A stretch of 64,000 nucleotides of DNA, taken from positions 4,482,095-4,546,094 of the forward strand of contig CBDCWI010000002.1 in assembly GCA_965223325.1 (NCBI GenBank), written 5' to 3'. Of this stretch, positions 1,349-52,124 are shown piece after piece; within the stretch, counting starts at the first letter, position 1, and each line of letters begins with the position of its first letter. Made by a program: the position numbers and the translations under genes. The notes under the pieces were generated by a model. It made no database searches, was not told the DNA's origin, and saw only the letters and a program-made list of their open reading frames with translations. Source of the DNA: Candidatus Multivoradales bacterium. Lineage in GTDB: Bacteria; Acidobacteriota; Thermoanaerobaculia; Multivoradales; Multivoraceae.

Positions 1349-1896
1349 GGACGAGACCCGGGCGCGCCACGAGAGGGGACTAGGCCTCGCGGTGCCTACA
1401 AGACGACACAGGTGAGTCCGATGCGCCGTCCGAGGAAGCTCGATTGGGGGCCGAGGCCTCGGGTCATCGCGTCGGACTCGTACGAGCGCAATCGGCTGCT
1501 TTCGGTGTTCGATGCAGTGAGGCGAGCGCATCGCGCGGCGCGCGATCTTCTGTGGGGTGGTGACCTGGAGGCGCGGTTTCCCCCCGGAACTTTCCCAAGC
1601 CCGCTGCCGTTTGTGGCCCTGGAAGTGCCTGGGCCGGGTGCACGCGACGGTCCCTGACGGCCCAGGCCACCGGCGAAGAGGTTGAGGGGGACGCACCGAT
1701 CGGTGTGTTGGCGGAGCTCCGTTTGTCGGGCGGAGTACCGACGTTCAGGAGTGGCGAAGGCGAGGTTTCTGCCTTCGTCACCGCCCTTCGAGGTCGGAGA
1801 AGAGGGCGATGGAGCGCGCGAAGGCTCGGCGCTTCGTCCAGTCCAGCGTTGCCGTCAAGACTTACCCCCGACCGTGCGCGGCATCGCCGCGCGATC
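1349..1896 (+). mobile_element. 3' remnant of the RAYT element (C-terminal coding part plus right end with REP-like repeat)
   Basis: Near-identical to ~5170-5725 (EGTRPRGAYKTTQVSPMRRPRKLDWGP...ARDGP stop 1657); ends in CTTACCCCCGACCGTGCGCGGCATCGCCGCGCGATC at 1896. Confidence 0.9.
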
Positions 1897-2165
1897 AAGA
1901 GTCGGTTCAGCCACGGGCTCTGCGCGCATGCCTCCAGAGCAATGCCTCTGCATGTGCGATCGGCGAAGAAGCGCCGCATGCGCTCTTGCGTCGTGGGAAT
2001 CTCGCAGCGCTCTACGACCGCGCCCTCTTCGGAGATCTCACAGATCGCACTGGTCTTCACATGGACGTCGATGCCAAAGTAACTCATGGTCGGTCTCCTT
2101 CCGTGCCTGTTACCGAGCTGACCACTTTGTCAGCTGCCTGGGAGGCCGACCGACTCATTTTATCT
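1893..2165 (-). pseudogene. IS110/IS1111-family transposase N-terminal fragment with its 5' leader
   Basis: MSYFGIDVH...CEI...IALEAC (DEDD RuvC-like start, ATG at 2087); leader hairpin GGTCGGTCTCC/GGAGGCCGACC at 2088-2151; truncated after ~65 codons at the REP end. Confidence 0.85.
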
Positions 2166-2170
2166 GGAAC

Positions 2171-2260
2171 GTCGCCGGAACGTCTCCGAGGCGAGTACAA
2201 TTATGTGGACGTGAGCGGCGGTTTTCGCTGTCTTCAATTCCATTGAATAACACGTTGGGC
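2171..2260 (+). other. attI-like integron attachment site 1
   Basis: Core G|TTGGGC at 2254-2260 is complementary to GCCCAAC closing cassette 1; no attC hairpin upstream; two 16-bp blocks identical to the inverted site at 8323-8380. Confidence 0.7.
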
Positions 2261-2287
2261 GTCACTTAACCGAACGAGGGAAGAGAC

Positions 2288-2881
2288 ATGAGGAAGGTTC
2301 AATCGATCACAGTAGCCGTGCTTCTTGCGCTTGCGGTGGTGCCACCGCCGGCAATAGGGCAAGATCTTCAGACGACAACTACTGATGGCGGCAGCGTCGT
2401 CACCGATCTCGGTTACAGCATTAAGATCAACGAGAAGTCGTCCTTACGGAGGACCCTCGTTGTCATCAATGATCCGAGTTGTCCCTTGCAGCTCTCGGAG
2501 GCCGGAATCAACATTGAGTACAACGACCGGAGCTACAGCTACAGGCCCACTGGAACAGCCACGGCACAAGGTGCGCTGTCTGCCATCGAGGTTCGATATC
2601 TACTGTTCGACATGTTCGGAAACCACTTCAAAACACTTTCGGCTACCAAGGCGGCTGATCTAGGTAGCGGCAGTGCGCTCCAGCTCAAGGAGATAGGCTC
2701 CTGGCGTGCGTGGGAAAATGAGGTTTCTGAACTGCTCACTATCGTTGCGTTCGTCGGCCACGTTCGCGATTCTGATGGATCCGTTTGGAGGCACAGAGCC
2801 GACCCCATAAACGACGAACTAAACAAGATTCGACTTCGAGTCACAACGGGGGACCTCGATCCGACCAAGGACGCGAGGTGA
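2288..2881 (+). CDS. Integron cassette 1: hypothetical secreted protein (197 aa)
   Basis: N-terminal signal peptide (MRKVQSITVAVLLALAVVPPPAIG); lower GC; bounded by GTTGGGCGTCAC and GTGAGGCCCAAC. Confidence 0.85.
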   Translation: MRKVQSITVAVLLALAVVPPPAIGQDLQTTTTDGGSVVTDLGYSIKINEKSSLRRTLVVINDPSCPLQLSEAGINIEYNDRSYSYRPTGTATAQGALSAIEVRYLLFDMFGNHFKTLSATKAADLGSGSALQLKEIGSWRAWENEVSELLTIVAFVGHVRDSDGSVWRHRADPINDELNKIRLRVTTGDLDPTKDAR

Positions 2882-2882
2882 G

Positions 2883-2966
2883 GCCCAACAAAGCGCCTCC
2901 ACTTGACTCGTGCCCGCGCTCGCTTCGCTCGCCCGGCCACGAGCAAGTGAGGCTCGCTCGTTAGGC
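2883..2966 (+). other. attC site 1
   Basis: R'' GCCCAAC, L'' GCCTCCAC and L' GTGAGGC (one extra C in the left arm), R' GTTAGGC; 84-bp imperfect palindrome with central GCTCGCTTCGCTCGC. Confidence 0.92.
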
Positions 2967-2988
2967 CTCCAGGCAACGAGATCAATTC

Positions 2989-4249: not shown

Positions 4250-4325
4250 GCCTAACAGATCGGCTGCACGCGGCCGTCAACCTGTGCTCGCTTCGCTCGC
4301 GGCGGTTGCCGCCGGTGAGCCGATG
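4250..4325 (+). other. attC site 2, truncated (R' missing)
   Basis: R'' GCCTAAC, L'' GGCTGCAC, central GCTCGCTTCGCTCGC, L' GTGAGCC, then the RAYT element begins where GTTRRRY should be. Confidence 0.85.
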
Positions 4326-5725
4326 GATCGCGCGGCGATGCCGCGCACAGTCGGGGGTAAGTTTTGAGTCGAAGTCGTGGCGCAGGACCGGGACTCGCCA
4401 CCGGCCCAACGTGTAGCCCGATTCACAAGATGACAGTTGGTCGATGGCGAGGGTCATCCGCTAGGATTCGGCTCCCTGCAAGGCATCGATGGTTCCGTGC
4501 GATGAGTCATGGCCCATCAACTGAGGTATGTCCCCACCGACGGAAGCGGTTGGGGAGTCGTCGAAGTGACGGTGCGCATCGTCAACGGGTTCTTCCTGTT
4601 GGCGCCATCGTCACACCTACGCGAACTGCTGATCGGGATCATCGGTCGCGCGCAGCGAAAGACCGAAATCCGGATCTACGCCCTGGACTACCAGGTCAAT
4701 CATGCTCACCTTCTGCTGGGCGCTCGCGACGCCCAGCAGCTGGCCGATTTCATGCGGCGCATTCAGCACCAGACGAGTGTGGAACTGCGGATCCTGCGCG
4801 GGTGGAAGGGTCCGAAATGGGAAGGGCCGTACAAGACGTCGTTTCCCGGTCACGCGAAGAAGGACCTCTGCCGTCGTTTCCGCTACATCCTTGCCCAGGG
4901 CTGCAAGGCGGGGTTGGTGTCTTCACCGCGCAAGTGGCCAGGCGTGTCGGTGGGGGAGGCGTTGTGGTCAGGGACCTTCGAGCTCGAGGGCACCTGGGTC
5001 GATCGTTCAGCGCTGCGTCGTGCCCGTTTCTCGAAGGCCGGTCGTCGTTTGAGCGAAAAGGACTTCTCGAGCCGCGAGACGGTCGTGTTATCGAAGCTTC
5101 CGTGCCTCGAGGACCTCCCTGACGAGGAGTACTTCGACTGGGCCCGCGGGATGATTGTAGAGATCGAGGACGAGACCCGGGTGCGCCACAAACGGGAGGG
5201 AACGAGGCCTCGCGGCGCCTACAAGACAACGCAGGTGAGTCCGATGCGCCGTCCGAGGAAGCTCGATTGGGGGCCGAGGCCTCGGGTCATCGCGTCGGAC
5301 TCGTTCGAGCGCAATCGGCTGCTTTCGGTTTTCGATGCAGTGAGGCGAGCGCATCGCGCGGTGCGCGATCTTCTGTGGAGTGGTGACCTGGAGGCGAAGT
5401 TCCCGCCTGGCACTTTTCCAAGCCCGCTGCCGTTTGTGGCCCTGGAAGTGGCTGGGCCGGGTGCACGCGACGGTCCCTGAGTCCAGGCCGCCGACGAAGA
5501 GGTTGACGAGGTTGAGGGCGACGCGCCTACTGGGCGATGGCGGAGCTGCGTCTGCCGGACGGCGTACCGAGGTTCAGGACTGGCGAAAGCGAGGTTTCTG
5601 GCCCCGCGACCACCGATCGACGTCGGAGAGGGGGGCGATGGACTTTGCGCAGACTCGGCGCATTGCCCAAAACGGTGTTGCCGTGAAAACTTACCCCCGA
5701 CCGTGCGCGGCATCGCCGCGCGATC
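4326..5725 (+). mobile_element. Complete 1400-bp RAYT-like element bounded by 40-bp inverted REP-like ends
   Basis: 4326-4365 GATCGCGCGGCGATGCCGCGCACAGTCGGGGGTAAGTTTT matches the reverse complement of 5686-5725 at 39/40; each end has the hairpin GCGCGGC-N3-GCCGCGC. Confidence 0.88.
4509..5480 (+). CDS. RAYT-like HUH/Y1 tyrosine transposase (323 aa)
   Basis: HUH motif VNHAHLLL; Tyr motif RYILAQGCKAGLVSSPRKWPG (resembles RAYT YIxxNPVKAGLVxxPxDW); C-terminal FPPGTF. Confidence 0.88.
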   Translation: MAHQLRYVPTDGSGWGVVEVTVRIVNGFFLLAPSSHLRELLIGIIGRAQRKTEIRIYALDYQVNHAHLLLGARDAQQLADFMRRIQHQTSVELRILRGWKGPKWEGPYKTSFPGHAKKDLCRRFRYILAQGCKAGLVSSPRKWPGVSVGEALWSGTFELEGTWVDRSALRRARFSKAGRRLSEKDFSSRETVVLSKLPCLEDLPDEEYFDWARGMIVEIEDETRVRHKREGTRPRGAYKTTQVSPMRRPRKLDWGPRPRVIASDSFERNRLLSVFDAVRRAHRAVRDLLWSGDLEAKFPPGTFPSPLPFVALEVAGPGARDGP

Positions 5726-5806
5726 TATCGGTTGGCAGGTCCGCGCCGGAATCGCGACGTACTGGGCACGAACGGCTCTACCCGCTGCCTGGGCGGCGCC
5801 TGCGCA

Positions 5807-5890
5807 GTACAACGGACGAGAATCACGCGCTCGTGCCCGTGCGAGCGAAGCGAGCCACGGGTACGAGTCGCGTGGATTCGGTTGTTATGA
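5807..5890 (-). other. attC site 3 (minus orientation)
   Basis: Minus strand reads TCATAAC-aaccg-AATCCAC...GCTCGCTTCGCTCGC...GTGATTC-tcgtcc-GTTGTAC; the extra C and the central motif both fix its orientation as opposite to attC1 and attC2. Confidence 0.88.
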
Positions 5891-8312: not shown

Positions 8313-8400
8313 CCTCATAACAGTGTTATTCAATGGAACAAACACAGCGAACACCGCTGCTCTCGTCCACATAATTGTACCGCTGGCGCCCGGCGACGAT
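8313..8400 (-). other. attI-like integron attachment site 2 (minus orientation)
   Basis: Minus strand GTACAATTATGTGGAC...TTCCATTGAATAACACT-G|TTATGAGG, homologous to 2195-2260; core complementary to the CCTCATAAC end of attC3. Confidence 0.7.
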
Positions 8401-8741
8401 CCCTCGGGAGCCCGGCGGCGTTGCCCTTCGGGTCTTGGGTCTGAGATTCCGGCGATTGGAAAGGCGGACCATCTCGTCGGCCTTTCCTGGAAGGAGGTCT
8501 GAAAGGCGGCGCGCTGGCGCGGTGTAGTTCGCGCGCGCCCCAGCGCGGGCCGCGGAATCCTGGGCGTTTGTTGATTGGGTGGCTGGGTAAACGTGGAGCA
8601 TGAGTTCCACATAACCCAACCCGGCTCGCGAAGGGGATCGGGCTCCGGCTTCCCTGGGAGGGCCGCCGCGACTGAGGGCTTGCGGCCTCGTAGGGCCCGC
8701 TTCTCGTTGACAGGCACGCACGCGAACGCCCACGTGGCTCG

Positions 8742-9000
8742 GGCCCGCGCGGCGATGCCGCCCACAGTCGGGGGCAAGTTTTGAGCCGAAGTTGTGGCGC
8801 AGTGCGACGCCTCGCGACCCTCGCCGGGCACGGAGTTCGGTTCGCTGGCTTTGGCCACCGGTGTTCGGAAAGGATGAAGATCTCGGCCGCCCGATCGCTG
8901 GCTCAGAGGAGGGCGATCCCGCGCGCGGAGGCTCGGACCCTCGTCCGGCACGGCGTTGCCGTCACCTACTTCCGGCCGTGGGCGGCAGCGCCGCGCGATG
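8742..9000. mobile_element. Non-autonomous ~260-bp MITE/REPIN derivative of the RAYT element
   Basis: Left part resembles 4326-4400 and right part resembles 1760-1896 and 5590-5725; no transposase between them. Confidence 0.8.
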
Positions 9001-9557: not shown

Positions 9558-12500
9558 TCAGGTGGCTACCTTCGCTCGGTTCGCAACTTGTGGATTGGTG
9601 GTTTCGCTTTCGATGGTGTCCTCCCACAGCTCGCGATATTCGGCTTCGCGGTCGCAGCGGAACCAGGGCGTCGGGTATGTCCGTTCGAGGTACGGCTCAA
9701 GGCCTGGGTCGCTGTAGCGGAGGGCGAGGAGTGAGCGTGCTTCCTCGCCGTCTTTCGTGATCTCGGTCGTGGTGGTCAGGTCGGCGATTGTGCATCGCTC
9801 GTCGATGCCGAGAACTGCTGCGTCGCGCTTCTTGAGCCGTACCTTTTTCTGGAGGAGGCGCTTGGTCCCGGGGGCGTTGGCTTCGTAGGCTTGTTCGATA
9901 TCGAAGCCGGTTTGCTCGGCCAGCAGTGCTGCTAGTTGAACGAGGTTGACGCAGTCGCGGCCGCTGGCGGTCCTCGCTGTTGGGATCTGGCGGCCGTGCT
10001 GGTCGTACATCCGTTCACGTTCGTACTGCTGGAGGACTGGGAACTGGCTGCGGTAGATGGTAATCAACTCCTCAATCGACAAGCCAATCAACTTGGCACC
10101 GATCACGTCAAGCCTTACAAGTGCGTTTCGCCTTTCGCGGTCACTCGTGTACGCAGCGCACTCGGCAGAGGGTGCTATATCGCCGAACGCTGTGTGATGG
10201 CAATGCAGTCGAAGAACTTCGTTGCGCAGTTCTTCTGCCAGGTCGGGGCAATCTCGCGGAACAGGTAGTCGCTCCAGAAGGCCCACGCCGCATTTGGGTT
10301 TACCGGTGGTCTTCACGAAGAAGTCGAAGCAGAGGGAGCTCGCGAGGCCGGAGAACAAGAGAAGGTCTGCCGTGCTTGCGAAGGCAACTGAAAGCACAGG
10401 GTCGATGTGGGCGCACCCGGGCGGTGCTATCGCATTGATCAAGGTGCGCTCACCGGTTGGGCTGAGCATGTTGCGATTCACATGCCTGTAGTAATCCGTA
10501 ACCAACCGCCCCCTCCACTTCGGCGTCCTCTTCCGATACTCCTCCGCATCACACGCCGGCACGTAGTTGGTGCGCGGGAGGTAGTCGTCGGGGATGGCGG
10601 TGAGGTCGATGGCGGTGTAGTCGCCTTTGCTCTTGCAGCCTTCGTTGGGGGTCTTGTTGAAAGGAGTGCCGACGTGGAAGTGGGGGCCCTGGAGGATCCA
10701 CTCGCCGGGATGTTTGGGCTGGCGGGTTTCTCTCTTGATGGTTCCGTCTTTCTGGGCGTTGGTCTCGTGCCACATCTCGGTGGCGAAGTACTGGTCCTCG
10801 AGGTCGCCGAGCTTGCGGGGCTGGGCGGCGAACTTCTCGAGGACGCGGAGGATCTCTTCGCTGTGGACGACGGGTAGGCGGGCTTCGAGGGCTGGCGTGC
10901 CGGGCTCGTCGTAGAGCTTGGCGAAGAGTTCGAGACGCTGCTCGTCGATGCAGAGGACGCGGCTTCGGTGGCCGCGCAGGTCCCAGGCGTTGTCTTCGTT
11001 CTTGATGCCGGGCACGGGGCCGTGGCCGTCGTGGGTGAGGCTGGATTCGATGGTGGTCGGATGGAGGAGATTCGACACCTGGAGGAACGAGTCAGTCGTT
11101 CTATGCCGGTAGACGTTCAGGCTGAAGAATGTGTCCATCGCACCGACTTCGGGGAAGAGCCTCAGCTTGTTATCGAACTGGTAGTGCGCTGCAAGGCGCG
11201 GATACAGCGCTGTCCTCAGCTCCCCACCCTTGGGATCGTCATACACCCCTTCCTGATGGATAAACCCAGCGATCCCGCGCTCCGATCCCAGCTCCCACGT
11301 CCGGGTGATGAAGCACTTGTAGAGATTCGTCTGAATCTTCGGTAACAGCGGATAGTTCTGCCGCTCACACAGAAACGCCTGCGTGCCTTCCATCTCCACC
11401 ATCTCAGCGACATAGTCACCCAGCTGCCCGTGGCGCCCGATCAACTCGCCACGTTGCTTGGCGATGTTCGACGACGAGGTCTTGCGTAGCGCCAGAGTGG
11501 GCTCGGCCTCCGACAGAAGCCCCGCCTCTTTCCACTGCAACTTGATCCACGGTGGGTTCCCCAGGACCAGATCAAACCCACCACCACCTGCAAACACCTC
11601 CGGAAAACACAACTCCCAGTGGAGGAAGCGGCGCTCCGTTCCTCGCTGCGAATCCTTCCGGTTCTCACCCTCCTCGTCCTTCTTCGTATCCTTCCGAACG
11701 CCTCCTCCAAAAGCCGGTTCCGGATACGCAACCTTTCGAACAACCGCAAGGTCAGGATTCCCCGCCAACAGCTCCTCAACCGCAACCACCCCACACGCCT
11801 CAACATAGTCCTCACCAAGCCGCGCGAAACGCTCAGAAATCCTGCGCAGCCGCCGAAGCCGAACCTGCGTGGACTCCCCAGCCCCGAGCATCTCCGCTGC
11901 CTCCTGGCCCACCGCCGGCAGCTTCTGTTCCATCTCGGCAATCACGTCAGCAAACAAGCCGATCTGCTCCGGCGGCCCAGGCGCCTCGGTCCGTCCTTCG
12001 AGAATGAGCTCCAGCCAACCCAACCAGACACTACGTTCAGGCAGTTGATGGCTCAGTTCAGGCGGCCAGAAAAAAAGAGAACACCAGATGTCCATCACCA
12101 GCTCGAGTCGCCGGTAGGGGCCGTTGTCGCGCACGACGGCACGCATGACCTCTTCCTGTTGGGACACCAGAAGCTCACCGTCGCGCGACATTCGAACCGG
12201 CACGAACGACGACGGCTCGATCCCGCCATCGCCGGCAACACTCGAGCCGCGCTTCTCGCCCCACACCGGGATCCGGTCGGTGGTTTCTTCGATTGCGAAC
12301 AGGCGCTCGGCGGTGACCTTCTCGAACAGCTTGTCGACGGCATCCGAAAGCCGGACAAGTCGCTCGATGTCATCTCGCGAGAAGGGCTCCTTTTGATTGG
12401 ACCTCCAATTCCGCAGTCGCTCGGCGTCCTCGGAACAGAGTTCCTTGAGCACCTTGGATTCGCCATAGGCGGCCATACCGGCTGCGGGCACCAGGAAGTG

Positions 12501-24946: not shown

Positions 24947-24963
24947 GGAAACCGAGAGCCGTC

Positions 24964-38123: not shown

Positions 38124-38241
38124 GACGCCGTCATTTTACGCGGAAAATTGACGATGACCTAGTCAAAAGTGCGTTTTTGGCCTAGCGTCAGGTAGGGTGG
38201 TGTGGACTCCCGCACTCCGAAGCCTCGGGCGGGGGCAGAGA

Positions 38242-41012: not shown

Positions 41013-41050
41013 AGGGCTTACCTCCGACCGTAAGCGGCATCGCCGCGCGC
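41013..41050. repeat. REP-like end of the RAYT element (variant)
   Basis: CTTACCTCCGACCGTAAGCGGCATCGCCGCGCG. Confidence 0.8.
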
Positions 41051-41069
41051 CGTGAGGACGCCCTCCCTT

Positions 41070-41549
41070 CTATTCGGAGCCCAGAACGATCTCGAAACTG
41101 CCCTCTGGCATCTCGATGAGGAGCTTGAGCCGTCCGTTCATCGCGGAGGCGGCCGCGTGCAATGTCGAGACCCTGACGTCCTTGCGTCGTTCGAGCTTCG
41201 AGTAGTCCGACTGTGACACGCCCATCGCCTCGGCAACCTGGACCTGTGTCTTCCCAAGCGACTGCCTCAGCTCTGCGAGCGAGCCCCGGCTTCGATGAAC
41301 CCGGCTGCTCCCTCGATTCCGACAGAGTCTGATCCAATCGCGGACCAGGGGAGACGTTCCGTACATTGGGTAGACATCAATCAGTCGGGCGACCCTTTGC
41401 ACGAGCTCACTGTTGGGGTGCTTGCAGATGTGTTCGAGGAGGGGGCGCCAGCTGTCCAGGTCTCCTCGTTCGAGGAGATCCTGGATAGCCGCCAGGGGCA
41501 TCTCCTGAATCGAGACTCCGGGCTGGAGATCCAGGTGGCGGTGAATCAT
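41070..41549 (-). CDS. XRE-family HTH protein (putative antitoxin), copy 1 (159 aa)
   Basis: LAELRQSLGKTQVQVAEAMGVSQSDYSKLER...VSTL; N-terminal IQDLLERGDLDSWR. Confidence 0.88.
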   Translation of the reverse strand: MIHRHLDLQPGVSIQEMPLAAIQDLLERGDLDSWRPLLEHICKHPNSELVQRVARLIDVYPMYGTSPLVRDWIRLCRNRGSSRVHRSRGSLAELRQSLGKTQVQVAEAMGVSQSDYSKLERRKDVRVSTLHAAASAMNGRLKLLIEMPEGSFEIVLGSE

Positions 41550-42080
41550 GGTTCTTCTAGCCCTTCCTTGATGAATCGCTCGAGGACAGTGGTGGCGAGT
41601 CTTCTACAAGCATCGGAGACGGCGCCCCAGTCTTGCCAGCGACGGTCGAGGTGTCGGTAGAACCGCAGGTCAACCTCCGACAGATCATCAGGCATTGGGT
41701 CGGCGAGTTGTTTCGCGACCTGAGTGGCAATACGTCGCCCTCCCTCGCCCTGCTGATCTTCGTAGTAGTCGTCCATCGAGAGGACGACGTCGGCTGCTGC
41801 TTCGGGCCCCAACCGGTCAGCTAGAGCCACGAGGTCGAGATAGTCCCGTGTGGCGTTCCTAATGAGGCAGAGCCAGGCCTTGATTCTCGTGATCTCGTCG
41901 AGTGTCGGAACGCGGGTCTTGCGACGGCCGATCAAGATCTCTTCGACCTCGAGGGGTCGTTGGCGTATCAAGTTGCGCACACCGGTCTCGACGCCGTCGA
42001 GGGAGCCGAGAATCAAGACAGGAAGCTTGACACGGGCCGTAACCCAGCCGTCCGTGTCTTCCAGTGCGGCGAGGACGTGA
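41546..42080 (-). pseudogene. 5'-truncated AbiEii-like nucleotidyltransferase
   Basis: Matches 46650-47184 but lacks the N-terminal LVGGTA...SFDDD catalytic part; the break coincides with a REP end at 42079. Confidence 0.9.
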
Positions 42081-42115
42081 CCGCGCGGCCGTTCCGCGCA
42101 CGGTCGGGGCAGGTT
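42079..42115. repeat. REP-like end of the RAYT element (degenerate)
   Basis: GACCGCGCGGCCGTTCCGCGCACGGTCGGGGCAGGTT versus consensus GATCGCGCGGCGATGCCGCGCACGGTCGGGGGTAAGTT. Confidence 0.75.
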
Positions 42116-42516
42116 CCGGGCCGGGTGGCCGTGCGGGTCGCGACGTCGACGATCGCGCGCACGTCCAAGTCGGCATCGCTCCGGCTTCGGGTCTGCCGGC
42201 GACTCCCAGCAGGCGGCCGACGAGACCGCCGAAGGAGGCGCGTGAAGCGCGGAAGCGCGTGTACCGGGTAGTTGGGACAGCGCTGCGTACCTCCCTGAAA
42301 GGAGCCGGTGAACTTCTACGTCTTGGTAGACGGCGGTTGCTACCTCCGTGACGAGCACGACATCGCGGCCTTTGTCTTCCAGACCTGGTGATTCCTTTCC
42401 TAGGTCGACTTTCCCTGGGGAGCGGCTTCCATCGCGGCCTCAGTCGCGACATCATGCAAGCGGGAGGCAGAAGAGACGACCCTCATCGATTCGAGATCGA
42501 AGGCTGGACCCGAGCT

Positions 42517-43239
42517 ATGTCTGAGAAGGCTTCTAGAAACCGCATCATCCTCGCGGGCTGTGCCGGTTGCGGCTGCCTGATTGTCGTTGCTGCCGCCGCT
42601 CTCTTCCTGCTTGGCCTGGTCGGAGCACGGACTGCGATCGATTCAGCCGAAGATGCCGCTATCCAGGGCGGCGGGCTCGAATCCGAAGTCCCGGATCTCG
42701 TGGAGCTCGGCGGTGACCTCGCCGTTCTAGCTGACGGCTCGATCGTGGCCACTGACACGGTCGCTGGCGGGGAGACCATGCAGTACCGCACGAGAGAGGG
42801 TGGCGTGCTGCCGGCAGAGAACGACCGTGCGCGAGTCGAGGTGGCCGGTTTCGGCATTCAGCCGGGGGAGCCAGGGCGGCATGGGCTCTTCTGGCAGTTC
42901 GAAGTCACCGTTCGAGAGGGCGACTTGCAGCACGTACTCGTCGAAGACGTCACCGTCGAGGCGGGCCGCGACCCACTGTCGGTGCGGCCGGTGGAACTGG
43001 TTCGAGACCAGGCGCCCGTGCTCGAGGCGGGCCGTTGGCGAGGCAAGACCACTACCTATCTGCTCGCCCGAGAAGCCTTCCCCTGGTTCTATTCCAACGA
43101 AGACACCGTGCGCGTCTTCCGGTTTCAGCTCGAGTTCGCCGACGGTACCGCCACAACGCTCTTTCAGCGTACCCAGCACGAGGGCCCCGTCAAGGCGCAG
43201 GTTCGCGAGCAGCTCAGCGCGATCGACAGCGGTGAATAG
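42517..43239 (+). CDS. Hypothetical membrane-anchored protein (~240 aa)
   Basis: N-terminal GCAGCGCL plus hydrophobic helix; GC3-rich codon usage. Confidence 0.7.
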   Translation: MSEKASRNRIILAGCAGCGCLIVVAAAALFLLGLVGARTAIDSAEDAAIQGGGLESEVPDLVELGGDLAVLADGSIVATDTVAGGETMQYRTREGGVLPAENDRARVEVAGFGIQPGEPGRHGLFWQFEVTVREGDLQHVLVEDVTVEAGRDPLSVRPVELVRDQAPVLEAGRWRGKTTTYLLAREAFPWFYSNEDTVRVFRFQLEFADGTATTLFQRTQHEGPVKAQVREQLSAIDSGE

Positions 43240-43349
43240 AGGCGCCCAGGTGCGGTCGTGATCTCGTTGTAGACCTGGTCTGCGGTGCCTGGAGTCTTGC
43301 CGGGCGTTGACCTCTGCACCTGTGCCGGGCGCCTGGTCGCCTCGCGAGA

Positions 43350-44063
43350 TCAGGGTTCGGTCACTGGGGGTTGGTCTGCTGATGGTTCGTCGCAGAAGCG
43401 GAGCACGTCCTCGTCGAAGGGGCTTTCGCCTGCGCGGACCCGGTCGCCGTAGGTGTGGGCTTTGGCGACATTCCTTGCGTCGAGCGTCAGGAGCCGCCCC
43501 ACGTACGCCCGGAACGGCTGCTCCTGGTCGTCGACAAGGTCGGCAATCGGATAGAGGAAAGGGGCGGCATGCCACTCGTCCTTGATGTAGATCGTCGAGA
43601 CCTCAAACTGAGTTCCTGGAGGCATGAGGAGGACGAGGCGCCCTTTGAACGGATCGGTGGTCGGTTCTGATGCGGAGCCGATCTTCAGGCCGTAATAGTA
43701 GTCGGAGTGGTGGCGAGGCGTCCCGCCACCGAGTTCGGAGGCCTTGAGGACGCCGCGGTAGAGGCCCATCAGTTTGGACTTCGCACCGGGGCTTTCTTCG
43801 TTGGGAAGCAGGTGGTTACTTTCGGCCCCGTAGATGTAGGTCGTGGTTTCGAGGCACTGCCCTACGAGCCACGAGAACTCCGGAGCTTGCGTAGCGTCGA
43901 TGATGTTCTTGCGCACGGTCTCGCCCTGGATCTCAGGCGGCTCAGGAGGTTGGCGGCGTTCTCGGAAGCAGCCGGCGACGAGGATCGCCATCGCGGTTGA
44001 AACGAGAACGATGCGCCCGATGCGTAGTGAGCCGAGTGCGATTGATTGTTCGTGCCTACTCAT
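43350..44063 (-). CDS. Lipoprotein, putative immunity protein, copy 3 (237 aa)
   Basis: Lipobox LVAGC; mosaic of copies 1 and 2. Confidence 0.85.
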   Translation of the reverse strand: MSRHEQSIALGSLRIGRIVLVSTAMAILVAGCFRERRQPPEPPEIQGETVRKNIIDATQAPEFSWLVGQCLETTTYIYGAESNHLLPNEESPGAKSKLMGLYRGVLKASELGGGTPRHHSDYYYGLKIGSASEPTTDPFKGRLVLLMPPGTQFEVSTIYIKDEWHAAPFLYPIADLVDDQEQPFRAYVGRLLTLDARNVAKAHTYGDRVRAGESPFDEDVLRFCDEPSADQPPVTEP

Positions 44064-45933
44064 CACCGCGCCACAACAGTCGCTTGAGAGAGGCGCCCCA
44101 GCGCGTTTGCGTGGCGCCGTCCTCGAGTGCGTTGAGATAGGTCTCCATGCCGTGGGTCGTGTCCCAGTTGCCGTCTTCACCTCGGTCGATGTAGCGGATC
44201 GTGTAGCCGTTGCGCTCGTAGTTGCCGAGCTGTGCCATTCCGGGGAACCCGGCACCGACGAGGTTGGGCACGGTATCGCGGACGTTGACTATAGCGTCGA
44301 GCGAACGAAGGCCGGGTGGATAGCTGTAGGCGGCACCGCCGTAGGAGATCACGTCGATGCGGGCTCGCTCTTCCATCGATAGATAGGAGAGGGCCGCTGA
44401 TCCGAGTGCGGCACCCTGGCTGTGCAGGTGGAGCCGCACGTTTTCTCCGGGGTTGTCTGCCAATTGCCGACGGATCTGGAAGATCAGCCCTTCCGTGGAG
44501 CGATCGAGCAGGTTGGGCTTGTTGTTGAACTGGGTCGAGAGCATGTCGATCGCCTTGTTGCTCTCATCCGTCGGATTGTGGAAGGGCAACACGTTCTCGC
44601 CGGTGGCGGTGTTCACGGTCTTCGCGTTCTCGATCGCTTTGTCTTCGTCGTTCCAGATTCCGTTGACGAAGATGGAGGGGTTCGGATCGTTCTCGTCGTC
44701 GCCCTGGATATCGAGGCTCTCGTAGCTCTCATCACCGAACGCGGCCAGTGCGAGTGCTTCTGGCCAGCTGTTCTCTGGGTTCTCAACCTGCCGCTCTCGG
44801 GCCTCCTGCTCGAGTGCCTCGATGCGGCGGTCAACCTCCCCGAAGACATTCTCGATCCCCTCGACATGCCCGTCGATCTCTCGGCCAAAGTCGCGGGCCT
44901 GGTCTGTGAGCCATCCCGGGTAGCTGCCGGAGCGGGCGACGTCGCCGAAGTGTTCGGCCGCGGCCCCGCTCGCCTTCGAGATCCACTCCCCGTCGTTCTC
45001 CCGCCAGGCCTGGGCGCCTTTCTCGTGCGCCAGGTCGCGGCCTTTGTTGGTCCAGAAGTCGACGGTGCCGTCGAGGTTCTCGCTCCATGCGCCGGCTTCC
45101 ATGGCGGCGGAGAACATCTTGCCCCCTGCTGTACTGTCGAGGCCGTTCTCCAACCGCTCGATTCCCAGGCCGACGCCTTCGTTCCAGATCTCGTCGCGGT
45201 GTTCCCAGAGCGACTCGCCAACTTTTGCGGTTGCCATGCCGACTTCGAAGCCGATCGAGACGAAGGTCTGTGCGGTAGTTGCCATCGCCTCCTGGATGTA
45301 CTCGCGACCGGCAATCACTTCCGCGACCGGCCGGGTGAGCTCGTCCACCGTGTCGAGCGCCTGGTCGGTCATGGTCGTGACCTTCTCTTCAACCCACTCG
45401 CCACCGCGGACCAGTGCATCTTCGGCGTCGAGGATCTCTTCGGCGGCGCGCTCGGTGACGTCTTCGAGGGCGCCTTCGATGGCTCCGCCCATTCGATCGA
45501 GTGCGGCGACGGTCTCATTGCGCGCCCCGGTCAGCCGCTCGTTCCAACCCTCGACCAGATCGTCGAACCCGTGGTCGATGGCGAAGTTGGCGGTGCTTTC
45601 GAGTGCCGAGTCGAAGCCCTCGGAGACGGTCTCTCGCGCTTCCCCGAGCCAATCGCCGAAGGAGGCCAGGAGGCCCTTCTGCTGGACGTCGCCTGATGGG
45701 GCGGTATCAGGAGCGTCGAGCGCCCAGGGTAGGGAGAAGTCGTCGGAGCCTTCGTAGGTGTCGCCGGGTGGCCACGGCTCGGCTGGCGGTTTGGGCCGGC
45801 TGGTGTCGATATCAGGGGCTGGCGGGTCGTTCTGAAGCCAGCCGCTCACAGCGTTCCAGAAGGCGTTGGTTGTACTGCTCATCCCGGGAGTCTCCGAAAG
45901 GGTCATCTCTTCGGACTGTCCTTCCGGTTTCAC
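44056..45933 (-). CDS. Lipase-like effector, copy 3 (625 aa)
   Basis: Same catalytic motifs; mostly like copy 1 with copy-2-like patches. Confidence 0.82.
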   Translation of the reverse strand: MKPEGQSEEMTLSETPGMSSTTNAFWNAVSGWLQNDPPAPDIDTSRPKPPAEPWPPGDTYEGSDDFSLPWALDAPDTAPSGDVQQKGLLASFGDWLGEARETVSEGFDSALESTANFAIDHGFDDLVEGWNERLTGARNETVAALDRMGGAIEGALEDVTERAAEEILDAEDALVRGGEWVEEKVTTMTDQALDTVDELTRPVAEVIAGREYIQEAMATTAQTFVSIGFEVGMATAKVGESLWEHRDEIWNEGVGLGIERLENGLDSTAGGKMFSAAMEAGAWSENLDGTVDFWTNKGRDLAHEKGAQAWRENDGEWISKASGAAAEHFGDVARSGSYPGWLTDQARDFGREIDGHVEGIENVFGEVDRRIEALEQEARERQVENPENSWPEALALAAFGDESYESLDIQGDDENDPNPSIFVNGIWNDEDKAIENAKTVNTATGENVLPFHNPTDESNKAIDMLSTQFNNKPNLLDRSTEGLIFQIRRQLADNPGENVRLHLHSQGAALGSAALSYLSMEERARIDVISYGGAAYSYPPGLRSLDAIVNVRDTVPNLVGAGFPGMAQLGNYERNGYTIRYIDRGEDGNWDTTHGMETYLNALEDGATQTRWGASLKRLLWRGDE

Positions 45934-46116
45934 CGCCGGGCGTTACAGGTCAGAAGCAGGGGCAAGTCCCCGTGCAGAGTCCGTGTACCGGGTCGGTCCG
46001 GCAGGAGGCACTTGGCTGCGCAGGCGGGCCTGGCCTCTCGCGCTGGCCTCGAGGCTGGCGTGCTGCGCACGGGCGTAGCTTCCGGGCCGAGGTCGTTGCG
46101 GTCGGGCGCTGCCCTA

Positions 46117-46154
46117 AGGGCTTACCTCCGACCGTAAGCGGCATCGCCGCGCGC
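46117..46154. repeat. REP-like end of the RAYT element (variant)
   Basis: Identical to 41013-41050. Confidence 0.8.
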
Positions 46155-46173
46155 CGTGAGGACGCCCTCCCTT

Positions 46174-46653
46174 CTATTCGGAGCCCAGAACGATCTCGAA
46201 ACTGCCCTCTGGCATCTCGATGAGGAGCTTGAGCCGTCCGTTCATCGCGGAGGCGGCCGCGTGCAATGTCGAGACCCTGACGTCCTTGCGTCGTTCGAGC
46301 TTCGAGTAGTCCGACTGTGACACGCCCATCGCCTCGGCAACCTGGACCTGTGTCTTCCCAAGCGACTGCCTCAGCTCTGCGAGCGAGCCCCGGCTTCGAT
46401 GAACCCGGTGGCTCCCTCGATTCCGACAGAGTCGGATCCAATCGCGGACCAGGGGAGACGTTCCGTACATTGGGTAGACATCAATCAGTCGGGCGACCCT
46501 TTGCACGAGCTCACTGTTGGGGTGCTTGCAGATGTGTTCGAGGAGGGGGCGCCAGCTGTCCAGGTCTCCTCGTTCGAGGAGATCCTGGATAGCCGCCAGG
46601 GGCATCTCCTGAATCGAGACTCCGGGCTGGAGATCCAGGTGGCGGTGAATCAT
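46174..46653 (-). CDS. XRE-family HTH protein (putative antitoxin), copy 2 (159 aa)
   Basis: One residue differs from 41070-41549; ATGA overlap with the upstream gene. Confidence 0.88.
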   Translation of the reverse strand: MIHRHLDLQPGVSIQEMPLAAIQDLLERGDLDSWRPLLEHICKHPNSELVQRVARLIDVYPMYGTSPLVRDWIRLCRNRGSHRVHRSRGSLAELRQSLGKTQVQVAEAMGVSQSDYSKLERRKDVRVSTLHAAASAMNGRLKLLIEMPEGSFEIVLGSE

Positions 46654-47354
46654 GGTTCTTCTGGCCCTTCCTTGATGAATCGCTCGAGGACAGTGGTGGC
46701 GAGTCTTCTACAAGCATCGGAGACGGCGCCCCAGTCTTGCCAGCGACGGTCGAGGTGTCGGTAGAACCGCAGGTCAACCTCCGACAGATCATCAGGCATA
46801 GGGTCGGCGAGTTGTTTCGCGACCTGAGTGGCAATACGTCGCCCTCCCTCGCCCTGCTGATCTTCGTAGTAGTCGTCCATCGAGAGGACGACGTCGGCTG
46901 CTGCTTCGGGCCCCAACCGGTCAGCTAGAGCCACGAGGTCGAGATAGTCCCGTGTGGCGTTCCTAATGAGGCAGAGCCAGGCCTTGATTCTCGTGATCTC
47001 GTCGAGTGTCGGAACGCGGGCCTTGCGACGGCCGATCAAGATCTCTTCGACCTCGAGAGGTCGTTGGCGTATCAAGTTGCGCACACCGGTCTCGACGCCG
47101 TCGAGGGAGCCGAGAATCAAGACTGGACGCTTGATACGGGCCGTAACCCAGCCGTCCGTGTCTTCCAGTGCGGCGAGGATGTGATCAAAGCGCTCGGTGA
47201 GATCGGAGACCACATGATCGTCGTCGAACGACACTCGATGGCCTGCATGGTGAGCCGCCGCGGTCCCACCGACCAGGACAGCATCAGGCACGAGCTCTTG
47301 AAGGCGGGCAGCCGCTTCGAGAACGGCGGTCCACTTGGGGTTCTTGATGGCCAT
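46650..47354 (-). CDS. AbiEii/AbiGii-like nucleotidyltransferase (putative toxin, 234 aa)
   Basis: AVLVGGTAAAHHAGHRVSFDDD, IKAWL..RNATRDYLDL. Confidence 0.85.
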   Translation of the reverse strand: MAIKNPKWTAVLEAAARLQELVPDAVLVGGTAAAHHAGHRVSFDDDHVVSDLTERFDHILAALEDTDGWVTARIKRPVLILGSLDGVETGVRNLIRQRPLEVEEILIGRRKARVPTLDEITRIKAWLCLIRNATRDYLDLVALADRLGPEAAADVVLSMDDYYEDQQGEGGRRIATQVAKQLADPMPDDLSEVDLRFYRHLDRRWQDWGAVSDACRRLATTVLERFIKEGPEEP

Positions 47355-47472
47355 TAATAGTGATTATAGTCACTATTGTGGCGACTGGGGGTGGAAACGC
47401 CTTGCTCCTCGGGGCGCCTTCTGTGCTTGGGCCCGTTGATCTATCGAGAAACGCCGAAATCGACGGCGTGGC

Positions 47473-47626
47473 GCCCCACGAGCCACGAGAACTCCGGTGC
47501 CTGGGTTGCGTCGATGATGTTCTTCCGCACGGTTTCGCCCTGGATCTCCGGAGGCGCTGGAGGTCGGTGGCGTTCTCGGGAACAGCCACCCGCCAGCCAT
47601 GCAACAAAACTGAAACGAGGACAAGG
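47473..47626 (-). pseudogene. Fourth, fragmentary copy of the lipoprotein gene
   Basis: LAGGCSRERHRPPAPPEIQGETVRKNIIDATQAPEFSWLVG. Confidence 0.88.
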
Positions 47627-48889
47627 CTTACCTACGACGTCTTCGGCAACCTCCAGTCGACGGCAGGTGGCGGAGGCCGTGCGACCCCGACCAGTCAACA
47701 CACCAACCGACTGACCGTCGCCGGCACCAGGTACCAGCAAGATGGCAGCCTCATCGAGGCCGACGGCCGCATCTACCGCTACGGTGCCTTCGGCGAGGTC
47801 CTCTGCGCCAGCTCGGTCTTCCCTGACAACCCGTGCGTTCAAGACGACGGGTCGACCTCACCACCGAGCCAGCAGACCTCAGCGGTCTACATCTACGACG
47901 CTTCGGACGAGCGCATCTGGGAGTACGACCTGGCAGCGCGCAGCCAGTGGGCGATCCGCGACCTGGGCGGCCAGGTGCTGCGCGAGTACACCACCGACAA
48001 CGGCGTCTTCACCTACGAAGACACCATCCGCGGCCTCGGCAGGGTCCTGGCTGCCGAGACCACAGAAGGCCGCCGCTACCTCCACACCGACCATCTCGGC
48101 ACCGTGCGCCAGACCACCGATAGAGAAGGCAACGAAGTCGCCTACGACGTCTACTACCCCTACGGACGCGAAGCGACGACGTCAGACCAGGACGGCCTGC
48201 AGTGGAAATTCACCGGCCACGAGCGTGACTTCAACCACACCGGCTCGGCTGAAGATGACCTCGACTACATGCATGCCAGGTACTACTCGCCGGGGCTGGG
48301 TCGGTTTACGACGACGGATCCGATCAACTCGGGGAAGCCCGGGTTTCCGCAGACCTGGAACAAATACACGTACGCAACTGCGAGCCCCCTGACGAAGGTC
48401 GACCCTGACGGGCGAGAGCCGGTCTCGAGCACTGTTGTTGTGGTCAGCGCTACCGCTGCGGCTGCAGGAGCAGTAGCCGTTTGGGCATCCAGCCCCAACC
48501 CGGTACAGCCTGAGATGACAAACCTGGAAGTCGTGCAGGAGGATCTGCGTGAGGGTGCTGAAGCTCTGATCGACCTTGGACGAGTAGCGATCGATACACT
48601 CGCCAACATCTTCGCCTCTGAGAGCGAAGGCTCCAATCCCGAGACGGTTGCCACACCAGAGGAGGTCGACCCAACAGGCGGCATCAACGCCGGCGACGTC
48701 AGGAAACTGACCGACAGACGCCTGAAACAACTTGGCGTGAACGCAGAGGAGTTCAAGAAGGGTGAGGTAGGCGATGCAGCTGGCAGCTTCGATATTGGCG
48801 CCACTGGCGATGGGCGGCTGGTTCTGATTTCGAAGGGCGGTGACATTGTCGATCTTGAGATGTCAGTCGACGACCTTCAGGAGGACTGA
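47627..48889 (+). CDS. 5'-truncated (orphan) Rhs core with C-terminal toxin, Ntox33-like
   Basis: YD repeats, YLHTDHLGTVR, YYPYG, KFTGHERD, ARYYSPGLGRFTTTDP, TKVDPDG; tip LKQLGVNAEEFK...SFDIG...LVLISKGG. Confidence 0.85.
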   Translation, partial: LTYDVFGNLQSTAGGGGRATPTSQHTNRLTVAGTRYQQDGSLIEADGRIYRYGAFGEVLCASSVFPDNPCVQDDGSTSPPSQQTSAVYIYDASDERIWEYDLAARSQWAIRDLGGQVLREYTTDNGVFTYEDTIRGLGRVLAAETTEGRRYLHTDHLGTVRQTTDREGNEVAYDVYYPYGREATTSDQDGLQWKFTGHERDFNHTGSAEDDLDYMHARYYSPGLGRFTTTDPINSGKPGFPQTWNKYTYATASPLTKVDPDGREPVSSTVVVVSATAAAAGAVAVWASSPNPVQPEMTNLEVVQEDLREGAEALIDLGRVAIDTLANIFASESEGSNPETVATPEEVDPTGGINAGDVRKLTDRRLKQLGVNAEEFKKGEVGDAAGSFDIGATGDGRLVLISKGGDIVDLEMSVDDLQED

Positions 48890-49767: not shown

Positions 49768-49774
49768 CGGGGAA

Positions 49775-50173
49775 GGGGCGGCCTCGCGTCGTCTAGGAGG
49801 GCCGGAGTCTACGTCAACGGCAGCCTGTCGAACGCTTTCAGCCAGGGCTTCGAGTACGACGACCTGGGAGCGACCACCAGGATCCACTACCCGAAGTGTG
49901 AAGGAGGGGGCTACGCGACGCCCTGCACCAACGATCCCGCTCCCGAACCAGTACCGATCTTCCCGGCGCCGCGGCCATCGCGAAGAGGATTTTCGCAACC
50001 AGACGCGAGGTCAACAGGTGACACAGTCGACGATGGCGAACGGCGGCGTGCGTAGGACCGGTCAGGACGGCACGCAGATTAGGATGAACCCCGACGGCAC
50101 CGCCCGGCTAGATTTGCCGGGGCGGGGAAGCCGACCAAACGGTGAAACCGTTCACATTCCTCCGAGAGAGTAG
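49775..50173 (+). pseudogene. Rhs fragment fused to an orphan toxin tip
   Basis: FEYDDLGATTRIHYPKC Rhs-like stretch, then QSTMANGGVRRTGQDGTQIRMNPDGTARLDLPGRGSRPNGETVHIPPRE stop. Confidence 0.55.
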
Positions 50174-50175
50174 TC

Positions 50176-50745
50176 GTGGCGCCGATACGCACCCTGGTTT
50201 CGCAGCTTCTAGCGAGCGCATGGAACGACATCCAGGTCCAAGCAGGGAGTCTTCGGCCTAGTTGCGCCGTTGGTACCGGCGGACACTCAGTTTCGGGTCT
50301 CTTGGTCCGAAGCTGCGCGGTTTTGATTCGAGGGGTCTCCTGGGACGACGTTGAGACGGGTGAACGTTATGGGTTGGAGTTCCTGAGCAGCGAGAGCAAG
50401 GCTGCAATGGACTTCTTGGCCTCGGCAAGGCCGCCTTTTAGACGACTGGTTGATATTCCTAGTTCTCTATCAGCGCTTCGCGCATTCGGCAGTTTCCCGC
50501 CCACCTCGGTGGATATTGGGCTTCACAACTTGTCAGCGGCGACCGAGGAAGGTGTGCCTGTGGCTTCCGAGGAGGCGCCGGTCAGCTGGTGCAAGTTCAC
50601 TTTAGGTGCGCGCAGGGGCCGTACGCTCTGGCTTCTGCCTGACGAGGCGATTCCACTCAATGTTGGATTGGTGCATGCCCACGATCTGGTCGCCTGGCCT
50701 GATAGGTCGCAAACGATCGTGCCGGTACGGCCCGGCCCAGGCTAG
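50176..50745 (+). CDS. Hypothetical protein, probable immunity partner of the orphan tip (189 aa)
   Basis: Starts 2 bp after the tip stop; lower GC; followed by another Rhs core fragment. Confidence 0.55.
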   Translation: MAPIRTLVSQLLASAWNDIQVQAGSLRPSCAVGTGGHSVSGLLVRSCAVLIRGVSWDDVETGERYGLEFLSSESKAAMDFLASARPPFRRLVDIPSSLSALRAFGSFPPTSVDIGLHNLSAATEEGVPVASEEAPVSWCKFTLGARRGRTLWLLPDEAIPLNVGLVHAHDLVAWPDRSQTIVPVRPGPG

Positions 50746-50766
50746 GCACCGCACAGGGCCGACTCC

Positions 50767-50945
50767 ACGCATGCCAGGTACTACTCGCCGGGACTGGGGA
50801 GGTTTACGACGACTGATCCGATCAACTCGCGTAGGCCCGGGTTTCCGCAGACCTGGAACAGGTACACCTACGCGACGGCAAGACCCTTGACGCTGGTCGA
50901 CCCCGACGGCCGAGAGCCGGTCTCTGGGACCGTCGTTGTGGTCAG
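50767..50945 (+). pseudogene. Rhs core-end fragment
   Basis: Near-identical to 48268-48448 (HARYYSPGLGRFTTTDPINS...VDPDGREPVS). Confidence 0.9.
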
Positions 50946-51215
50946 CCGAAGAAGGACCTTTGTCGCCGTTTTCGCTACATTCTCGCCCAGGGCTGCAAGG
51001 CGGGGTTGGTGTCATCTCCTCGCAAGTGGCCAAGCGGTCGGTAGGGGAGGCGCTCTGGTCGGGGACCTTCGAGCTCGACGGCATCTGGGTCGACCGCTCA
51101 GCGCTTCGGCGTCTCGCTTCTCGAAGGCGGGTCGTCGTTTGAGCGAGAAGGACTTCTCAAGCCGCGAAGACGGTCGTTCCTTCGAAGCTTCCGTGCTTCG
51201 AGGACCTCTCTGACG
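50946..51215 (+). pseudogene. Internal RAYT transposase fragment
   Basis: Aligns with 4856-5124 with small indels. Confidence 0.9.
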
Positions 51216-52124
51216 ACGCATGGGTTGTCGGGGAAGACCGAGCTGGCGCAGAGGACCTCGCCGAAGGCGCCGTAGCGGAAGATGCGGCCGTCGGCCTCGA
51301 CGAGGCTTCCGTCCTGCTGGTAGCTGGTGCCGGCGACGGTCAGTCGGTTGGTGTGTTGACTGGTTGGGGTCGCGCGGCCTCCACCACCTTCCGTCGACTG
51401 GAGGTTGCCGAAGACGTCGTGGGTAAACGCCTGTTGGTGCTCGTTGCCGGAGCCGTCGCGGGCGAGGTGGACTCCTGCCTCGGCGAAGCGGTGGACGGCG
51501 TCGTAGCGGTACCAGGAGCCGCCGATCGAGAGCGCCGCGCACGGTAGGGGGTAAGTCTTCCCGGCAACGCCGGCGACCGCGCCGCGCCGCGCTCCAGAGC
51601 TCTCCGTCAGCCTCCCCACGACCTCGATGCGTCTTCGCAACGTCCGAAACCTCGCCTTCGCCACTCGTGAACCTCGGCATTCCTCCCCGCTGGCGCAGCT
51701 TCGCCACCACACCCGCCGGTGCGTAGCCCCTCGAGCTCGCCAACCACCTCTTCGACGGCAGCCGGACCGTCAGGGACCGTCGCGAGCAACCGGCCCAGGC
51801 ACTTCCAGGGCCACAAACGGCAACGGGCTTGGGAAAGTCCCCGGCGGAAACTTCGCCTCCAGGTCACCACTCCACAGAAGATCGCGCGCTGCGCGATGCG
51901 CTCGCCTCACCGCATCAAAAACCGAAAGCAGGCGGTTACGCTCGTGCGAGTCCGACGCGATGCCCCGAGGCCGCGGCCCCCAGTCGAGCTTCCGCGGACG
52001 GCCCATCGGACTCACTTGCGTCGTCCTGTAGGCACGCGAGGTTTCGTGCCCTTTCGCTTGTGGCGCGCCCGGGTCTCGTCCTCGATCTCGACGATCATCC
52101 CGCGGGCCCAGGCGAAGTACTCCT
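51216..52124 (-). other. Inverted 909-bp segment (RAYT 3' end, REP end at 51524-51559, Rhs fragment)
   Basis: Flipping it restores RAYT CTGACG|AGGAGTAC and Rhs CCCATGCGT|TCAAGAC. Confidence 0.9.

Follow-up and report, generated by a model that had tools for sequence, protein, structure and literature searches.

Repetitive extragenic palindromic (REP) repeats and the tyrosine transposases associated with them (RAYTs) spread by mechanisms that were described as poorly understood in 2021 (PMC8266576). In vitro, TnpA(REP) cleaves single-stranded REP DNA at a C|T immediately flanking the hairpin on its 5′ or 3′ side, and the strand attacking the phosphotyrosine intermediate must end in C (PMC8266576). 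Insertion sequences (IS) of the IS200/IS605 type choose the cut site at their ends and their target by the same DNA-DNA recognition (PMC8266576, PMC6006769). RAYT genes typically occur in 1.3–1.8 copies per replicon and 7.7% of them have a copy at least 95% identical (PMC5581495), while the TIRtrons, whose RAYT-like genes (TIRYTs) lie between long terminal inverted repeats (TIRs), include one sharply defined acidobacterial group (PMC3733652, PMC6006769). Here we analyze a RAYT/TIRYT-like element in the window, which is the 64,000-nucleotide stretch forming the final 64 kb of contig CBDCWI010000002.1 (C2) of a Candidatus Multivoradales bacterium genome (6.69 Mb, 64% G+C). Positions without a contig name are those of the window and C1 is another contig of the assembly. 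Repeats in the window abut truncated genes, a pattern that the first-pass annotation ascribed to a transposase that cuts and joins at GATC. When 13 such junctions were compared with uninterrupted sequences, the targets were found to be broken after a C in all 13 pairs, mostly within GANC, and GATC itself is brought by the element.

The repeat has a length of 36–40 nt and occurs eight times in the window (1857–1896(+), 4326–4367(−), 5686–5725(+), 8746–8784(−), 41017–41049(+), 42079–42109(−), 46121–46153(+) and 51534–51572(−)), with a degenerate ninth occurrence at ~8964–8997. Its 28-nt core gave 7 matches at ≤3 mismatches versus 0 in 100 shuffles, and the 15-nt inner motif 7 matches versus a shuffle mean of 0.35. 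Read from inside to outside the sequence is AAACTTACCCCCGAC(C/T)GT-GCGCGGC-ATC-GCCGCGC-GATC: an inner motif, CTTACCCCCGAC, followed by a 7–8-bp GC hairpin with a 3-nt loop and by GATC at the hairpin 3′ foot. The single-stranded DNA hairpins of three canonical ends are predicted to fold with −10.4 to −12.7 kcal/mol. The segments 4320–4365 and 5686–5731 form an inverted repeat of 46 nt (96% matched) that brackets an open reading frame (ORF) of 323 aa (4509–5480) matching Pfam Y1_Tnp (PF01797; 26.7 bits versus a cut-off of 23, E 6.4e-6). Because the repeat pair brackets a Y1_Tnp ORF, the “REP” is the terminal inverted repeat of a 1.40-kb IS-like element encoding an HUH/Y1 tyrosine transposase of the RAYT/TIRYT kind. 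The complete copy in the window (E10) extends from GATC to GATC (4326–5725(+)). The HUH motif (NHAHLL) and the tyrosine motif (RFRYILAQG), both read by eye, are present in the 8 open copies among 9 examined.

TIRtrons resemble this element in having a RAYT-like HUH/Y1 gene between long TIRs, which also occur solo, paired or clustered (PMC3733652, PMC6006769), and in a G-run motif, GGGGWSAS (PMC3733652), that here reads GGGGTAAG (7/8) within TIRs of 40–46 nt. They differ in that ~10 full, mostly intact copies are found in the present genome, and in that the outer TIR half is here a REP-like GC hairpin ending in GATC. The C-terminal Bac_DnaA_C, HTH_23 or HTH_28 domains of TIRYT subclass 2.1 (PMC6006769) were not detected, as a Pfam scan of the 324-aa frame returned Y1_Tnp alone. 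With its long TIRs and GGGG-run motif the element seems to fit the TIRtrons best. REPtrons also have a Y1 gene bracketed by inverted hairpin repeats and a conserved cut-site-like C(T) just outside the hairpin (PMC8266576), but differ in several respects. The ~10 gene copies found here, with pairs at 97.5–100% identity, are IS-like behavior, and the 42 repeat ends lie mostly on element copies, whereas in REPtrons extragenic REPs number from dozens to hundreds. The sequence on the 5′ side of the stem is CTTACCCCCGACCGT, and neither strand has a GTAG next to the stem. The protein is about twice as long and scores 31.8 bits with NCBIfam NF047646 (REP_Tyr_transpos; positions 29–144 of 146 covered), below the cut-off of 80. 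Elements of the IS200/IS605 family (IS608, ISDra2) share the HUH/Y1 transposase, the hairpin ends, the multi-copy state and a target tetranucleotide resembling the end cleavage site (PMC6006769, PMC8266576). However, their subterminal hairpins are on one strand, with no inverted repeats, while here the same unit is found on opposite strands. They insert 3′ of a fixed tetra- or pentanucleotide, and the target tetranucleotide stays outside the left end, whereas here the junction keeps the GATC of the element and the targets read GACC, GCTC, etc.

The genome totals about 10 full copies with pairwise identities of 87.3–100%, and the full-length frame is open in 8/9 examined copies despite 5–12% DNA divergence. 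There are also at least 12 element fragments, solo ends and a few gene-less derivatives, such as the ~250-nt miniature at 8746–8997(+), in which a left-end repeat and ~57 nt of the left subterminal region are joined to right subterminal sequence and a degenerate right-end repeat. The copies lie mainly in two clusters among arrayed integron attC sites. The cluster at C2 4.44–4.49 Mb has 10 copies and fragments, without exception on the + strand, and the one at C1 2.12–2.14 Mb has 5, without exception on the − strand; about 16 co-oriented copies and fragments were counted across both. From the GC skew, the two are probably one co-oriented cluster on a single chromosome and one replichore. Relative to replication, ~19 copies have one orientation and 5 the other, but copies are clustered and hence non-independent, and no bias is claimed. 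Two copies, E4 and E5 (C1 2135813–2137200 and C1 2142755–2144090), match at 100% over 1336 nt, whereas their right flanks differ; therefore, the element or its ends were recently active. It looks like an unusually active, IS-like relative of the known RAYT/TIRYT elements. The copy at C1 2142755–2144090 reaches the contig end, and the assembly therefore probably breaks in this repeat.

All five junctions named in the first-pass annotation are real, with the outer repeat tip set against a truncated feature, and at four of them (1896, 4326, 5725 and 42079) the outer edge of the repeat is the breakpoint. At 1896/1897 a 3′ fragment of the element (1349–1896(+), element positions ~849–1406; 97.5% identical to copy E2 and 86.6% to E3), whose right-end repeat 1857–1896 ends in GATC, meets the 5′ fragment of an IS110-family element (1897–2194(−)). 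The ORF of the latter (2087→1897(−)) is cut by the repeat after ~63 codons and matches positions 1–67 of 343 of NF033542 and 2–40 of 155 of Pfam DEDD_Tnp_IS110. Longer alleles exist at C1 2133025 (13 more nt) and on a metagenome contig in which the frame runs on. Neither the DNA nor the translation of the fragment is related to the four other IS110-family copies of this genome. At 4325/4326 the left-end repeat of E10 cuts attC2 (4250–4325(+)), which starts with GCCTAAC and is devoid of a 3′ GTTRRRY box. A complete attC-like site, attC1 (GCCCAAC ... GTTAGGC), is located at 2883–2966(+). Identification of these sites is based on the RYYYAAC ... GTTRRRY boxes, on their imperfect palindromes and on the presence of the same repeat family beside the integron integrase gene intI (C2:3807261–3808190; 422.7 bits, above the cut-off), with related attC sites at C2 3.808–3.830 Mb. 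At the other end of E10 (5725/5726) lie the first ~85 nt of a cassette in inverted orientation: the cassette-start remnant (5726–5806(−)) stands behind an inverted attC-like site (~5807–5889), the whole feature covering 5726–5889. About 60 nt of it (to ~5752) are homologous to cassette starts behind attC sites of the chromosomal integron. This homology stops ~25 nt before the join, so that the intact sequence at the break cannot be read from it.

The fourth junction (42079/42080) is made by a solo repeat of a divergent subtype (42079–42109(−)) with GGTC as outer tip. It abuts a 5′-truncated AbiEii-like nucleotidyltransferase gene (41546–42079(−)) that is short of ~57 N-terminal codons, and the homology between two module copies (38238–42080 and 43346–47184; 3.8 kb) stops exactly there. 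The intact paralogue (46650–47354(−)) has GATC (47183–47186) at the position matching the break. The two strings quoted earlier are exact (GTGATCAAAG at 47181–47190 and GTGACCGCG at 42076–42084). No second copy of 47185–47363 was found between 33 and 53 kb. The protein gave 0 Pfam families even at E ≤ 1; its nearest Atlas clusters are annotated “nucleotidyl transferase” (PF08843 AbiEii in 24–57% of members, score 0.99), which makes this name a reasonable lead. The fifth junction, claimed at 51524, was found at 51533/51534. A truncated Rhs/YD-repeat frame (GGSWYRYDAV...) does start at the repeat, but the repeat itself (51534–51572) is broken, being cut in the hairpin loop or internally deleted, and its outer edge is not clean. 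It belongs to an element fragment at 51534–52124(−) (positions ~806–1392). The adjoining Rhs/YD-repeat fragment covers 51216–51533(−), its part 51216–51426 being 93% identical, in inverted orientation, to 47628–47838, and is followed on its other side by an internal element fragment (50940–51216(+), positions ~529–806). Within 50940–52391, an apparent inversion of 51216–52124 splits the element fragment (50940–51216 +; 51534–52124 −) as well as a second Rhs copy (51216–51533 −; 52124–52391 +), and re-inverting this segment would restore element-repeat-Rhs continuity.

As stated in the first-pass annotation, the missing halves of the cut targets are not found across the elements. Genome-wide flank searches did not find them beside any other repeat end either. 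Among 34 repeat ends, Pfam analysis of the 69 frames that touch them gave information on only 4: these adjoin a 5′-truncated subtilase, the truncated IS110, a TonB-receptor frame of uncertain status and, beside copy E6, an apparently intact MazE.

The 42 repeat ends were collected by nhmmer (E < 0.01, model end reached) and represent 39 distinct flanks, most of them on element copies or fragments. ATC follows the G of the core in 21/39 distinct ends (composition expectation ~1%) and the third base after this G is C in 32/39. The base after the tip is T in 16 ends, C in 11, G in 6 and A in 6, with no conservation further out. For 13 junctions an uninterrupted paralogue or allele was available in the same genome, and the tetranucleotide preceding the first shared flank base was read outward from the repeat. 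It is GATC in the nucleotidyltransferase. GACC was read four times: at an internal site of another element copy (11/12 alleles, one having GAGT), in the 3′ region of an IS110 element (4/5 alleles) and on each of the two sides of a 207-bp segment. GAGC is found in the IS110 5′ region and at C2 2021452, GGTC at C2 2021533, GCTC in the IS110 ORF, GCGC in the subterminal region of another end and TACC inside another repeat. CTTC and TCTC come from paralogues only 80% and 88% identical, respectively. Intact alleles thus have C at position −1 in 13/13 cases (background 0.33; p ~5e-7), G at −4 in 10/13 and A at −3 in 8/13. GANC accounts for 7/13, to be compared with 2.9% of genome positions (p ~2.5e-8), and exact GATC for 1/13. 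Homology to the uninterrupted paralogues starts directly after the C of the element GATC, and because junctions read GATC where the intact sequence reads GACC, GCTC or GGTC, the AT of the junction comes with the element. From these pairs, GATC forms the outer tip of the element itself, and the target only resembles it. The claim of joining at a GATC-like tetranucleotide is therefore borne out in that joins occur exactly at the outer tetranucleotide, and needs correction as to the origin of the GATC; the genome-wide comparison that had been proposed gave an invariant C and an enrichment of GANC, with exact GATC in one allele only. A break after C fits the C| cleavage known for TnpA(REP).

We favor a model in which end-joining by the transposase is combined with recombination between copies, to which we give a probability of roughly 0.55. 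By analogy with TnpA(REP) chemistry, the Y1 enzyme would cleave single-stranded DNA 3′ of the hairpin at GATC|N, and the 3′-OH C end of the element would be joined to DNA cleaved after a look-alike (GA)NC| pseudo-site. Each end is the same unit of a hairpin followed by a cut site on its own strand, so an end could react alone. Such one-ended joins would either remove what lies between the end and the pseudo-site or place new DNA beside the end. Homologous recombination and gene conversion between the many co-oriented copies exchange flanks as well, so that the unmatched, truncated neighbors would be the sum of both processes. Three sets of joins point to one-ended events. Copies E4 and E8 have a 100%-identical left flank and most of the body in common, and different canonical right joins. 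One IS110 fragment (flank 98% identical) is found next to two element sublineages (97.5% versus 86.6% identity to the element fragment in the window), with joins 11–13 nt apart. At C2 2.02 Mb, paralogous sequence carries two related ends at a distance of 81 nt. That single ends act in vivo, the hairpin-GATC| being cleaved and joined to any same-strand (GA)NC| so that adjacent DNA is eroded or new DNA placed by a fixed end, is a tentative proposal that we consider less likely than not. The deletion of adjacent DNA by the transposase, as put forward in the first-pass annotation, is plausible and one of two live explanations: joins do differ at related ends, and the copies are at the same time recombination mosaics.

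Several observations weigh against the combined model or limit its basis. ATC is absent from 18/39 ends. Two further pairs misfit C|: C1 485255 has a shortened repeat with a 4-nt CGAG overlap, and C1 2133038 is joined via a C-run without GATC. Pairs 4 (C1 2137200) and 7 (window 8746) are ambiguous by 2–3 nt, and pairs 6 and 7 are based on paralogues just 80–88% identical. The C common to both sides may just as well belong to the target, as its first base. All pairs are from one genome, several from one rearranged island, and are not fully independent. No element was found inserted between two flanks that run on uninterrupted in an intact allele, so that the data give no direct view of whole-element transposition or of its target rule. 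Copy E7 was considered as such an insertion and rejected, its left flank having only CTCGA in common with the uninterrupted C1 allele. Logan contigs from 4 runs of one study break at the repeats and, apart from the longer IS110 allele, add only joins of other loci of this genome or of unknown strains. At least two ends adjoin apparently intact genes: the MazE gene by E6 and the gene of a helix-turn-helix protein (HTH; 41070–41603(−)), 20 nt beyond the end of which lies a solo repeat with no ATC tip (41017–41049(+); identical copy at 46121–46153). Finally, the mosaic copies show that recombination alone can account for part of the flank mismatch.

This last point is at the heart of the strongest alternative, in which ordinary two-ended transposition into (GA)NC sites comes first and co-oriented copies then recombine homologously, no transposase-made deletion being needed. 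Genes would first be cleanly interrupted, and later crossovers would delete or exchange DNA, leaving ends that keep their join and lose the partner half. Mosaicism is evident in E3 and E9, whose 1352-bp left flank is 100% identical, with 0 mismatches in the first ~200 columns and then 27/97 near the right end, and in E4 and E8, identical save for a patch at columns 800–1200. The uniform strand of the copies within each cluster is also as this explanation would have it: crossovers between co-oriented copies must delete or exchange flanks, and part of the missing halves is thus explained without the transposase. However, a complementary half lies beside another repeat end for 0/13 targets, solo repeats without an element body are found at truncations too (e.g., the nucleotidyltransferase), and the joins 11–13 nt and 81 nt apart on paralogous targets beside related ends remain to be accounted for. 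As recombination within the element cannot shift a join, we rate insertion plus recombination alone as rather unlikely and clearly behind the combined model.

Transposase-independent illegitimate recombination, in which the hairpin stalls replication and slipped-strand or microhomology joining of the GATC foot to look-alikes deletes DNA, would agree with joins at the foot of a stable hairpin, with targets that match GATC at 2–4 of 4 bases and with the 4-nt CGAG overlap of the one non-canonical pair. Yet the microhomology is imperfect, often with a mismatch beside the join (GATC versus GACC), which is unfavorable for slippage, whereas C at −1 in all pairs and T as the commonest next base among repeat ends follow a known enzymatic rule. 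The E4/E5 pair and the open frames argue for an active element, and we regard this explanation as improbable. That the target is the Dam site GATC, with methylation steering the transposase, is the least credible proposal, for although the intact nucleotidyltransferase allele reads GATC at the break and the arm symmetry of attC2 predicts ..CCGATCT.. near its own (the only way its intact sequence can be predicted, and the site was kept out of the 13 pairs), exact GATC was read in a single intact allele, the Dam family PF02086 had 0 matches in this 98.2%-complete genome with positive controls detected (other methylase families being outside the survey), and GATC is neither avoided nor enriched (observed/Markov-expected count = 1.00).

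The genome offers a RAYT relative that is still IS-like, with many intact copies including one 100%-identical pair with different right flanks, and more than 12 joins that can be compared with uninterrupted paralogues. This leads to a testable rule: cleavage follows the C of GATC, and the end is joined to DNA cleaved behind (GA)NC. If single ends do act in this way, the pairs of junction and intact sequence would be the first natural record of a strand-transfer rule for a REP-type transposase. A limited literature search found no description of such natural pairs for a RAYT or TIRYT element, which does not show that none is in print. The joins also show an island of integron cassettes and defence genes being eroded by such elements and by recombination between their copies. 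The role of main remodeller of this island, attributed to the transposase in the first-pass annotation, is not supported as worded: a second Y1-like element, IS110, ISL3 and IS256 elements and integron cassettes are also there.

The 30 other genomes searched did not contain the DNA of the element, and 5 of them gave weak matches of 33–86 nt only; no empty sites were therefore obtainable from those genomes. A search of genome contigs with the element protein for related loci gave no confirmed relative. A word-indexed protein search returned only 13 hits, while an exhaustive HMMER search uncovered a wider family of 136 clusters of ~310-aa full-length relatives at E ≤ 1e-30, some sources naming relatives of the protein RayT. 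Paralogous Y1 genes (~70% DNA identity) have only the inner GTCGGGGG motif in common with the element and not the hairpin with GATC. A chimeric repeat subtype at C2 2.02 Mb combines the inner motif GGGAAAGTCCCCCCGAC of distant Y1 paralogues with the outer hairpin of the RAYT-like element. Five co-oriented paralogous gene starts (~300 nt, 80–88% identical) are found there (C2 2017445–2027292), four of which end at this repeat subtype; the fifth is a ~140-nt partial unit in which the repeat was not detected. The 300-bp repeat-terminated units were considered as miniature elements, a reading rejected because they are conserved gene starts.

The second TIR element, which we call Z, is 1.5 kb long, and the clusters of the RAYT-like element also contain at least 7 full copies of it. 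One starts 168 nt before the window, its right part occupying 1–1348(+), and others are at C2 4455162–4456675, 4464855–4466351, 4469469–4470985 and 4479895–4481389 and at C1 2128578–2130080 and 2140231–2141720. Z has TIRs of 64–72 nt (TCCAGGCA...), with a hairpin, CCGAGGC-GAA-GCCTCGG, after its right end. Its 281-aa ORF (223–1068) has no Pfam match; the nearest Atlas clusters have Y1_Tnp in 28% of their members, which is a lead only. In three places, one of them 1348/1349, the right end of Z (...GCCTCGG) adjoins an internal site of the RAYT-like element. The last ~19 nt of Z are similar to the IS110 fragment at its 5′ end (~2165–2195). The Logan contigs also contain short-sided joints of the Z end with repeat ends.

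The sequence directly following the integron integrase gene (C2 3808190–3808518) recurs at four integrase-less places (recurrences and related coordinates: window 8346–8745 and 2195–2264; C2 4159133–4159562 and 4402073–4402485; C1 2122547–2122970). At two of them (8745/8746 and C1 2122544–2122547) it stops at a piece of the RAYT-like element, in the position expected for the integrase gene. The region 33683–47363 is made of three tandem copies of a 4.4–5.1-kb module, 82–93% identical and with different right boundaries. The long ORFs of the module (312 and 628 aa, minus strand) have no Pfam or NCBIfam match, and a 115–155-nt piece of each module recurs at 47473–47627, at the start of an Rhs-core ORF. 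A defence-island-like run of very large genes spans 9558–29439 and encodes a 1743-aa Eco57I/MmeI-type methylase, a 1094-aa SNF2 helicase, a 2229-aa DEAD helicase with an MrfA Zn-binding (MZB) domain and a UvrD-like helicase. It is followed by an IS256-family transposase gene (29722–30948).

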